DNA of 27,613 bases, from assembly GCA_027623195.1 (NCBI GenBank), contig JAQBUT010000033.1:1-27613 (forward strand), written 5' to 3'. Origin of the DNA: Chloroflexota bacterium. GTDB taxonomy: Bacteria; Chloroflexota; Dehalococcoidia; Lucifugimonadales; JADFKI01. The position numbers and the translations under genes are program-made. Below, one piece after another: positions 8,846 through 22,248 of the stretch; position 1 is the first letter of the stretch; each line of letters begins with the position of its first letter. The notes below the pieces were generated by a model. The model searched no databases. It worked only from the letters and a program-made list of their open reading frames with translations, and was not told where the DNA came from.

Positions 8846-9994
8846 CTATTCAATTTGCTTGTTGCCGAAAACAACCAGGTGTATTTCCGGTACAGTTACG
8901 TGCTGAATGAGTTCCGTAGGCAACGGATCGGGGTCGAAGCTTTTGTGCACCCCTGTTAGCTGCCAACCATCCAGGGCGACCTCCTCGACCGTGTATTGGC
9001 CCACATCGCCTATGACCCAGATGGGCGTGTAGGACAACTGGGTTACACCCAGAGGGTCTGTTATCAGGAAGGGCCAACCGCCACTCGTGGGGCTAATGCA
9101 GTTCTCATCCAAGTCCCCATTCGCCTCTACGCAGTAGCCAACGACGGTGAGGTCCTCGAATATGTTTCGCCCAAACTGGCTACGGGGTGACTCATCCCAA
9201 ACGCCATTGCCATCTTGGTCAAACCACTTGATAACGTCGAACATCAAGTCGCTGTCGTCCCCCAACACCTTGAAGTTGTCCGTCTTTATCTGGTCCCTAG
9301 AAGGGCCGAAAGCCTTGTCGGCCTTGGCGCAGAAGTCAGGACATGCATGCGGCTTTTGCAGACCGGCCCCAAGCTGGTTTGGAATATGGTTAACGTTGCC
9401 TCCCTTGGCTTCGTAAACACTAAGGGGGGTGACCCAGGCCTTGTAAACCCCGCCCGGGTTGGGAGTCGTGCCATAAGGCATCATCTGAACAAGGATAGAG
9501 CCATCGCTGCCATGGTCCGCATCGACATTGGTGTCGTGCTGACCGGACGCTCCTGTCACTCCAGGGTCCGTGGGATGCGGTGGATCGTCGTCAACATGGC
9601 AAGGTAAGGCCGAACTGGGGCCGCTGTTAGCCCAGTTATCGGTGCTGACGGGATCCGGCTCTGACGGCGGCACCCTGCGTACGATAATCCCTCCCATGGC
9701 TTCTATCATTCTGCACCTTGCAGGGTCTTGCGAAAGCAGAATTTTCCCCGAAGGATCTGTAATCTGAAAAACGTAGATATCGTCGGGTAGACCGGCCGCA
9801 GATGCGGGGGCATTAATTGGAGGGCCTCCGTCCAGATATACTTCTTTCTTGTCGTTGTATTTGACGTTCTGATTAACGAACGAACCATCAGGCGTCGTCG
9901 TGAAAATAGCACCAGACAGCGAAGCCGCCTGGACCGCCGAATTGGCGACAACCAAGACGAGCGCGAAGATTGAGGCGAATAGTACCGCTTTCAA
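8846..9994 (-). CDS. Secreted hypothetical protein with a C-terminal SpaA/SdrD-B-like beta domain; 5' end uncertain (in-frame TAG upstream)
   Basis: Signal peptide ending VQA-A; GAIFTT...VYLDGGP...YVFQITDPSG N-domain; KWFDQDGNGVWD, GQYTVEEV..GW, VVFGN C-domain pattern. Confidence 0.7.
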   Translation of the reverse strand: MKAVLFASIFALVLVVANSAVQAASLSGAIFTTTPDGSFVNQNVKYNDKKEVYLDGGPPINAPASAAGLPDDIYVFQITDPSGKILLSQDPARCRMIEAMGGIIVRRVPPSEPDPVSTDNWANSGPSSALPCHVDDDPPHPTDPGVTGASGQHDTNVDADHGSDGSILVQMMPYGTTPNPGGVYKAWVTPLSVYEAKGGNVNHIPNQLGAGLQKPHACPDFCAKADKAFGPSRDQIKTDNFKVLGDDSDLMFDVIKWFDQDGNGVWDESPRSQFGRNIFEDLTVVGYCVEANGDLDENCISPTSGGWPFLITDPLGVTQLSYTPIWVIGDVGQYTVEEVALDGWQLTGVHKSFDPDPLPTELIQHVTVPEIHLVVFGNKQIE

Positions 9995-10440: not shown

Positions 10441-10516
10441 TGGTGGAGCTGCGGGGACTCGAACCCCGTACCCCCTACTTGCAAAGCAGGTGCTCTCCCT
10501 GATGAGCTACAGCCCC
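10441..10516 (-). tRNA. tRNA-Ala (TGC)
   Basis: 76-nt cloverleaf GGGGCTG...CAGCTCCACCA; anticodon TGC; G3:U70 identity pair; TTCGAGT T-loop; encoded CCA. Confidence 0.98.
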
Positions 10517-10610
10517 ACGTGAGCTATCAGCATCAGGCAATCAGGGATCAGCGGGGTTGGGGAATGGTGCTAACAGCTAATCACTGAAAGCTGGTGCCTA
10601 CAATAAGAAA

Positions 10611-10641
10611 ACCTTAACCACTGGATAGTGAGAGGAAACAC
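10611..10641 (-). repeat. 3' arm of the 16S processing stem
   Basis: Reverse complement of 12340..12370 at 30 of 31 positions. Confidence 0.85.
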
Positions 10642-10837
10642 TTTTTTACTTTACTGAAAAAACGGTAGGTTTTCTCAGGGAGATGACTTTGAGGTTCAAG
10701 GAGCTCCACCCGACGAATCGGGTTCCGACTCTACTATCCGTCTCTATCATCCCGCCTACCGAACGACCTAGGAGCAACACCCATTTGGCTTTGGTCGGTT
10801 ACCCGACTGTTGGCCGCGTGGGCCTTGGTATTCTCCC

Positions 10838-12338
<1,501 letters not shown>

Positions 12339-20329: not shown

Positions 20330-20368
20330 AAGAGGCCTCCTCTGGATTCATGTCAGAGGAGGCCTCTT
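20330..20368. terminator. Probable bidirectional terminator between tetR and the UGSC gene
   Basis: Perfect 15-bp inverted repeat AAGAGGCCTCCTCTG/CAGAGGAGGCCTCTT. Confidence 0.75.
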
Positions 20369-20389: not shown

Positions 20390-22081
20390 TTAAGCCGTGC
20401 CGTTCACCGACGTCCGGTGTTCAATCTCCGCAGTGCCTGGTGTGGATGCTGCGAAAATCAGATCCTTGGCCCGGTCGTTGGCGCCCACGCACACCAGCCA
20501 GTAGCGGTCCGGCGTCTCGTGGGTATGCAGAAGTGTCTGCTCCTGCTCCCTGGGGCTAAGGTCGTACAGCCACTTCCAGCCCCACTTGACCTTCTCCAGC
20601 ACCTGGAAATTGTTGATTAACTCTCGCGCAGGCCTCTTGCTGTGGGCATGGATGAAACTCTTGGCGGCCTTCTTGCTGAAGCCATCATTGAAGATCGGGA
20701 TGGCATGAGCAGGCGCAATCAGCATGAGCTTGCCGCCCCGAGGACGATCATCGTACTCGCCATGCAGGTTGGCTATGTGCTCGCCTCCTCCCATGTTGCC
20801 GGCGTAGGCTATGGTCCGCAGGATGCCCGGGCCTGTGCTGTTTCCCTGGTCTCCCACGTCCATCTCGGCCCTGGTGCCGAACACCGTTACGGTGCTGGCG
20901 TCCCTTCGGAAGCCTTGCTCTACGTGAAACGGTTCCCACGGGGAGTCCTCTTCGTTCTCCGCAATCAGCGTGGGGAATTTCCGAGTGGTGCCGATGGTGT
21001 CCATATCCAGATGGCCCGTGTACCAGTGGCCAACGTTCTTGAGCATCAGCAAAAGGCCGCGCCCTATGGTGATGTTAACCTGAGAGCGCTTGCCCGGGCC
21101 CAGTGTTGCCCGCTTGGAGTTTATGCCCAGCTCATTGGCAATGGGGCCGTTCACCATCCAGAGCGGCGCGTGGGCGCTGGTGGACATGAGCCAGCCACGA
21201 GCATCCTGCGGGTCAATGCTCGCCAGTGCGCGAGCCCCAGCCATAATTACGGGCAGGTGTTCTGGCTTGCAACCGGCCATGACGGCGTTGATAGCGATTT
21301 TGCGGACGGTAGCGTAGCCCGTGCCAGGAGGCAGCAGGCAGACCAACTCGTCTGGGCCTTGGCTGGTGCCTGTCAACATCTTTTCGACTCGTTCAGGCGT
21401 CGGAGGAATCAGGGGGAACCCGTCGCCCCAGTCCCGGTCCATGAATGCTGCGTTGAATGCGTCAGCCGCGCCGAACTGGTCTTCACCCTCGAACGTCTCT
21501 ACGCTGCCGTCACCCCTGGCATCAAGGACAGCCCCCTCATGGGCGTGGCCATTCACGGATGTGGTAAGAATCCTGATAATTTCATCCATAGCCGGATCCG
21601 TCTGGGCTATGGTCTCCTCAACCGTGATGTTGTTGTAAACCTTGGGGACAACAGCAAACTTGATATCGCCCATACCAAATGCCTTGGCGCTGGCGAATGC
21701 GTCGTCCTGAAAGCCCTCGGAAAGAATCGTAGCAGTGGGAACTCCAGCCTTCTCCAAAGAGACCATGTCGTGGATCATCCACGACGTGCATGACCCTCAA
21801 TCAGCGGTGCAGCCAATGGCTACATCCACCTCCTGCTTGGCCCTGTCCATAATGAACTCAGGCGTGGGGAGCGCCCCACTATAAAACTTCACCGTGACGC
21901 CGGGAACTCGTTGCACCAACAACTCTCCTGCCCTGCGAAGGGCTACGTCGCCGTTGGCCTTACCGTTCCAGACCAGGCCAATAGTCTTGCCCTCCAGACT
22001 GGAGGGTCGTGGCGCCAGCGGCGTGGCTTCCACCTCCCCCAGCACCGGCGCGACGGGATTCAATACTTCTAGCTGATACAT
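20390..22081 (-). CDS. UGSC-motif selenoprotein, 563 aa, Sec at codon 95 (TGA 21799-21797), fused to a DGxPxxPPT-type C-terminal domain
   Basis: AGGAGG SD and ATG at 22081; reads ...IGCTAD-TGA-GSCTSWMIHD in frame into the 462-aa ORF; SECIS-like hairpin directly 3' of the UGA. Confidence 0.88.
21759..21796 (-). promoter_or_regulatory. Candidate bacterial SECIS element
   Basis: UGA, 11 nt, then perfect 8-bp stem GTCGTGGA/TCCACGAC with loop TGA (G in second position); lower stem GGGTCAT/ATGGTCT with G-U pairs. Confidence 0.7.
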
Positions 22082-22248
22082 TCTCGCCTCCTCTAAGAAT
22101 TCCTTTGGAAGGGGTCCAGAGTCAGCACTTAGACTGAATATTCCAGCCCTTCTTTCGGTTCCATTTCCGTCTCAATCGGGGTTCTATTATAATCCCAATG
22201 TTCAGAATTTTTACAAGTACCAGAAAAAGTTAAAAACGGGGAAGAAAT

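Follow-up and report, generated by a model that had tools for sequence, protein, structure and literature searches.

UGSC is a recognised family of selenoproteins with no assigned function, and it is listed without one in the available portions of PMC1976440, PMC9312934, PMC9402790 and PMC13188914. A fusion named UGSC/Unknown_1 has been in print since 2008 (PMC2398784, text and Fig. S1A), where UGSC is presumed to be thioredoxin-like in fold and a redox Cys is proposed in Unknown_1. In the GOS marine dataset, 8.2% of the 4324 selenoprotein genes belong to UGSC (PMC9402790). UGSC/Unknown_1 is among the most abundant uncharacterised selenoprotein families of aquatic metagenomes. The other described systems to which we compare it are the protein B enzymes, in which a selenocysteine (Sec) is described as the nucleophile that attacks a polarised C-N or C-F bond, with thioredoxin as the electron source (PMC10838667 and PMC13188914). 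Here, we analyse a selenoprotein gene at 20390-22081 on the reverse strand of a 27,613-nucleotide stretch of a Chloroflexota genome (contig JAQBUT010000033.1, assembly GCA_027623195.1), referred to below as the window.

The gene appears as two open reading frames (ORFs). The first, of 94 aa (22081-21797), closes at a TGA (21799-21797), beyond which the frame remains open as far as 20390; the downstream apparent gene is a 462-aa ORF (21778-20390). Reading the TGA as Sec gives a single coding sequence of 563 aa, ...IGCTAD-U-GSCTSW..., in which U95 is the sole recoded step and the first residue of a U-G-S-C (UxxC) motif. The Pfam model of UGSC, PF24696, matches the read-through protein at residues 6-173 (21563-22066) with 123.3 bits (gathering score 25), while the separate halves score 42.9 and 41.0 bits; the TGA therefore lies within one domain. 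The initial annotation had proposed both that the two ORFs are one protein with an in-frame UGA and that it belongs to a selenoprotein family of no assigned function, and the match across the junction bears out both. Its view of the two start codons also holds. An AGGAGG Shine-Dalgarno site (22087-22092) lies 5 nt ahead of the ATG at 22081 and is complementary to the 3' terminus of the 16S rRNA encoded in the window. By contrast, the ATG at 21778 lacks a site of this kind at the usual spacing, and it is located at the top of an 8-bp hairpin (21785-21767).

Most homologs of this gene have either TGA or a Cys codon at the Sec position. A family survey covered 27 genomes, the window's own included, and gave 28 fused copies, two of them cut by contig ends; all 28 have TGA at the motif. 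A distant survey used the best 80 among 596 confirmed loci, which come from named genomes across many phyla. UGSC matches were found in 69 of these loci, 77 matches in total, and the codon at the Sec site is TGA in 71, TGC or TGT in five (one misaligned), TCG in one and TAA or TAG in none. Four Cys-codon genes were thus seen as DNA. At the protein level, 120 matches were listed of 3567, and among these all 59 proteins that span the site have Cys at the Sec position. Amino-acid identity to five close relatives is equally high after the UGA as before it, so the homolog comparison suggested in the initial annotation shows TGA or Cys prevailing and conservation continuing past the codon. The Cys of the motif, Cys98, is kept in 69 of the 71 TGA matches. 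The further Cys four residues upstream (C91), which the initial annotation had also pointed out, is present but is a feature of the clade and not of the family at large, as it occurs in 2 of the 71 distant TGA matches and in 5 of the 28 family copies, own copy counted.

The genome, which is 87% complete, contains selA, selB and selD above the cut-offs as well as tRNA-Sec, so the organism has the machinery to decode selenocysteine, as had been supposed. Its selD carries an in-frame TGA of its own, and all three UGSC domains of the genome have one TGA each. Among 121 sampled genomes of the phylum, selA is present in 11 of 11 UGSC-positive genomes against a base rate of 91/121 (p ~0.04, with kin that are not independent). 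One of the 121 is marked unpublished (G064), and no conclusion depends on it.

A hairpin of the selenocysteine insertion sequence (SECIS) type follows the UGA at 21767-21785 (+12 to +30, reverse strand). It has an 8-bp stem and a 3-nt loop, UGA, with G in the second loop position, lies 19 nt from the UGA and folds with -12.6 kcal/mol (z -2.67; 4 of 200 shuffles). The bacterial SECIS model in the Fig. 2 legend of PMC13188914 describes a loop of 3-9 nt, a stem of 4-16 bp, a G in the first two loop positions, a distance of 16-37 nt from the UGA and a minimum free energy of at most -7.5, and the hairpin agrees with it on all these points. Longer segments around the hairpin are no more stable than their shuffled versions (z -1.78 to 0.07), and therefore the support for a SECIS element comes from its conservation. 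Of 67 TGA matches with a UGxC pattern, 61 were distinct after removal of duplicates; in these, a mean of 6.95 of the 8 pairs is kept, compared with 4.70 after synonymous recoding, and the value is higher in 59 of the 61. At several base pairs both sides have changed. The four Cys-codon genes keep 5, 6, 5 and 6 pairs. In the five close relatives, the 35 hairpin codons (25 degenerate) contain no synonymous difference, while the next 59 codons downstream contain 114 of 266.

From the Sec machinery, the TGA/Cys pattern and the constrained hairpin, we are almost certain that this is one gene, in which UGA95 is recoded as selenocysteine with an adjacent SECIS hairpin and UGSC is fused to Unknown_1, although this conclusion is drawn from sequence comparison. 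What speaks for a true stop, that is, for two separate proteins or a nonsense-broken gene, is that gene callers split the gene; 58 of the 120 matches listed begin at residues 101-106, just after the Sec codon. However, such a stop would lie inside a single Pfam domain, would always be TGA and never TAA or TAG in the family copies and distant matches alike, and would be followed by a hairpin under constraint in a genome with full Sec machinery, in a phylum sample where selA accompanies UGSC throughout. Intact homologs, moreover, have Cys at the site. We consider a true stop very improbable.

The fusion of UGSC to a large domain with a DGFPLIPPT motif is also real, but it is already in print as UGSC/Unknown_1 in PMC2398784. 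In a by-eye comparison with Fig. S1A of that paper, the UGSC motif, the domain order and the AxNxVMAGCxP motif with its conserved Cys are the same. The protein itself is thus not new and joins a published fusion as a further member. It does not differ in kind from the published UGSC family, but its subfamily has the extra upstream Cys and scores 104.6 with NF041046, below the curated cut-off of 125, a point against the reading given here. A fused Cys homolog reaches 95.8 with this model, compared with 149.4 for a stand-alone one; the cut-off thus seems geared to stand-alone forms.

A possibly new aspect is the fold of the UGSC domain. The structure model of the whole chain has a predicted local distance difference test score (pLDDT) of 92.6 and a predicted template modelling score of 0.92. 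In it, the UGSC domain is a flavodoxin-like alpha/beta/alpha fold with Sec at the end of strand 3 and the start of helix 96-111, and the structural matches listed for it are flavodoxin-like or Rossmann-like. Thus, both the model and the profiles point to another fold than the likely thioredoxin-like one of PMC2398784 (text and Fig. S1A). The position of the UxxC motif at a helix start is nevertheless shared with the thioredoxin-fold UxxC selenoproteins.

Profile-profile alignments with hhalign link the UGSC domain to the catalytic domain of GrdB/PrdB (95.8%, E 7e-9, 87 columns), with Sec aligned on Sec. The controls gave 2.3% (E 0.02) for thioredoxin, a shallow profile of nine thioredoxin-like sequences of the genome, and 0.3% for receiver domains; the best of 30 column shuffles reached 0.75%. 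Masking the four motif columns leaves 89.0%. The value is 96.5% to eight GrdB-type and 85.3% to 16 PrdB-type sequences, and an independent alignment to the genome's own GrdB gave 73%. The alignments and the model support the view that UGSC is not a thioredoxin but a remote homolog of the catalytic domain that carries Sec in protein B of the glycine, sarcosine, betaine and proline reductases. GrdB, GrdF and GrdH of glycine/sarcosine/betaine reductase (TIGR01918, PF07355), PrdB of D-proline reductase and the fluoroacetate reductase FarB would then have a strand-Sec-helix-strand core homologous to that of UGSC, in which the Sec columns coincide. The fusion differs from GrdB, PrdB and FarB in that it matches none of their family models and has Unknown_1 in place of a GrdE-like partner. 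Unlike in GrdB systems, no gene adjoining it within the window is a grdA or grdC.

Unknown_1 (20417-21496, reverse strand) is about 360 aa long and has the pattern DGxPxxPPT ... AxNAVMAGCxP ... ENEExSPW. Residues 174-563 matched no Pfam or NCBIfam model. Predicting the structure of both domains, as first suggested, gave a flavodoxin-like UGSC domain and an Unknown_1 with no clear match among solved structures. Its invariant or near-invariant polar residues are D220, T228, T258, N265, N336, R341, N349, D359, E375 and E377. Cys271 of the MAGC motif (21269-21271), the conserved Cys already pointed out in 2008, is Cys in 127 of 150 aligned rows and Ala in 21.

The two domains occur together in several arrangements. 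In the phylum sample, Unknown_1 is present in 14 of 121 genomes, which cover all 11 UGSC-positive ones; leaving out the window's own genome (G000) and G064, the figure is 9 of 12 in 119 genomes. Of the 71 TGA matches, 43 are fused and 28 unfused (some perhaps through frameshifts), and three proteins have the fusion in the reverse order. The window's genome holds three UGSC and three Unknown_1 domains, namely the fusion described here, an adjacent gene pair on contig C1 and two lone genes on C42 and C44.

For a natural two-gene Cys pair (L085), the predicted complex supports binding between UGSC and Unknown_1. It scores 0.86, while the best of three controls scores 0.00; the mark used for this score is reached by 116 of 157 solved complexes and by 2 of 215 mismatched pairs, and is rough with our own alignments. 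Halves of fusions tend to pass it. The runs share at least 92% of the contacts, and the pLDDT of the partner is at least 90. On the UGSC side, the predicted interface includes an N-terminal arm and the equivalents of U95, G96, S97, T99-W101 and H104; on the partner side, it includes the equivalents of 293-302 (with the conserved T301), N349 and 357-360, and the equivalent of Cys271 is not named. Together, the co-occurrence and the model support that Unknown_1 is a dedicated partner of UGSC, fused in either order or separate, which would dock over the Sec loop.

Two observations on Unknown_1 relatives stand apart. Six proteins of about 710-740 aa (P0156, P0168, P0182, P0201, P0255 and P0265) have two matched stretches, which are probably tandem Unknown_1 domains; the two that were scanned have no UGSC match. 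In 4 of the 80 loci (L081, L092, L094 and L127), the UGSC and Unknown_1 genes have a DUF6282 amidohydrolase-like gene between them or directly behind them.

By analogy with protein B, UGSC/Unknown_1 could be a self-contained reductase of two domains, with Sec attacking a small substrate and thioredoxin recycling the enzyme, a proposal to which we give somewhat less than an even chance. Unknown_1 would bind a small organic substrate and orient it at the interface, that is, take the role of GrdE/PrdA with an unrelated fold. As in protein B, the target of the Sec95 selenolate would be a polarised bond between carbon and a heteroatom (C-N, C-S or C-halogen); Cys98 would resolve the adduct to a selenenylsulfide, and thioredoxin and thioredoxin reductase would re-reduce it. 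Thioredoxin-reductase-like genes are found in 6 of the 80 loci and adjoin the gene in four. More tentatively, the family can be seen as a third branch of protein B, in which the GrdE/PrdA partner has been replaced and a stand-alone, thioredoxin-driven carbon-heteroatom reductase acts on dissolved organics. Unknown_1 would then have a fold without a solved example, possibly a new one, and the paralogs, three UGSC and three Unknown_1 in this genome, would take different substrates.

A number of points weigh against this link to protein B. The similarity to GrdB is limited to about 87 columns from the Sec strand onward, and the N-terminal half of GrdB does not match the protein (0.5%). PF07355, TIGR01918 and TIGR04483 do not match it either (Pfam E <= 0.1, NCBIfam E <= 0.01), and Unknown_1 has no similarity to eight GrdE-like sequences (0.06%). 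As the genome's GrdB has no PDB sequence match at E <= 1, there is no reference structure for a comparison of folds. In the L085 complex, contacts are best defined at the N-terminal arm rather than at the Sec loop, and the paired alignments were drawn from fused proteins, which favours a pass. About 10 of 52 diverse full-length homologs lack Cys at the Sec position. Shared ancestry of the UxxC domain leaves the chemistry unfixed, a separate grdE-grdB-grdC-grdA cluster already exists in the genome, and thioredoxin reductase is confined to the six loci. No neighbour family beyond the gene's own is found in more than 15 of the 80 loci, and the neighbours point to no substrate.

A possible, if doubtful, alternative is a thiol-type oxidoreductase, the role implied by the literature, in which the UxxC motif acts as a reductant of disulfides, peroxides, sulfoxides or persulfides, or as a sulfur relay, and Unknown_1 gives specificity or passes electrons via Cys271. 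The near-complete retention of UxxC among the TGA matches, the fold and redox Cys proposed in the text of PMC2398784, and the presence of the family in Proteobacteria and Actinobacteria genomes agree with this, and the adjoining thioredoxin reductase genes fit equally well. However, the profile similarity is far lower to thioredoxins, with the nine-sequence control, than to GrdB/PrdB, the structure model is flavodoxin-like, Cys271 is replaced by Ala in the rows given above, and the invariant polar residues of Unknown_1 seem more like those of a small-molecule enzyme than of a protein-disulfide reductase. It is also conceivable, but unlikely, that Sec95 and Cys98, with Cys91 in the clade (C-x3-U-x2-C), bind an Fe-S cluster or a metal in a two-domain enzyme for organic acids, be it a hydro-lyase, an isomerase or a cluster-handling enzyme. 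The spacing presumably resembles the CxxxCxxC motif of radical-SAM enzymes, an N-terminal extension bears the source label NfuA in three homologs, and Foldseek matches Unknown_1 weakly to class I fumarate hydratase (E 9e-4, TM 0.20). MmgE/PrpD, CoA-transferase III and TctC genes are present in 5, 5 and 15 of the 80 loci, respectively.

As a gene, the locus is a routine mis-annotation of a family known without a function since 2007. The weight of the finding lies instead in the link to GrdB/PrdB and in the unsolved fold of the partner; with Sec predicted at the interface, they offer a testable enzymatic hypothesis in place of "probably thioredoxin-like". Culturable genera have natural Cys versions, both fused and as two genes, whose expression needs no Sec machinery. 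If the protein B reading is true, this chemistry would reach past Stickland fermenters to aquatic organic-matter degraders.

The initial annotation had placed the gene among genes of organic-matter catabolism. Such neighbours are present, but they say little about its role, because a divergent gene, similar to NAD-dependent epimerases/dehydrogenases, lies upstream, while downstream there is a terminator-like hairpin and then a TetR gene in convergent orientation. The hairpin, a 15-bp inverted repeat after the stop codon (20330-20368; -29.7 kcal/mol, z -7.07, 0 of 200 shuffles), coincides with a listed terminator-like site and is a probable intrinsic terminator, and the selenoprotein gene seems to be a stand-alone unit. 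For this organism, putatively SAR202-like in the initial annotation, the nearest relatives with a name belong to Dehalococcoidia, with a best identity of 72%. Upstream of the gene, three close relatives have the same neighbours, and the other family loci that were read have different ones. Among 12 distant loci read gene by gene, one (L057, 2727-5448, from a Dehalococcoidia genome) has grdB- and grdE-like genes adjoining the UGSC fusion on the opposite strand.

Elsewhere in the window's genome, contig C1 (G000:C1:46069-47637, L020) carries, within a catabolic cluster, an Unknown_1 gene and, behind it, a stand-alone UGSC gene (TGA). The cluster has a peptide-type ABC transporter, a flavin oxidoreductase and an esterase; going by their translations, FAH-family hydrolase-, CoA-transferase III-, deacetylase-, aldolase- and dihydropyrimidinase-like genes are also present. 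This locus serves substrate guessing better than that of the window. The complete grdE-grdB-grdC-grdA-like cluster (G000:C37:41342-46025; L163, L053, L164) has Sec in GrdB and GrdA. Its GrdB reads U-G-T-S, so the first Cys after Sec is missing, and it falls under the cut-offs of the substrate-specific models. A PrdB-like gene (G000:C56:159636-160865, L054), split at an in-frame TGA and with a UPNC motif and a long C-terminal extension, is probably another hidden selenoprotein.

In another genome (G039:C134:1791-4813), a UGSC/Unknown_1 fusion stands head to head with selA. The NfuA-labelled extensions belong to P0090, P0110 and P0113, and a small similar-looking gene lies just upstream of two Cys-form genes (L068:5584-5925 and L073:5687-5995); the pieces that were scanned have no Pfam match. 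Within the window, a putative lipoprotein (377-925) has a weak cytochrome P460 match (35.6 bits, cut-off 27), and a secreted-looking protein of 382 aa (8846-9994) has no Pfam or NCBIfam match. At 10444-12338, a tRNA-Ala comes after a 16S rRNA gene and no 23S rRNA match adjoins them: the rRNA genes are unlinked.
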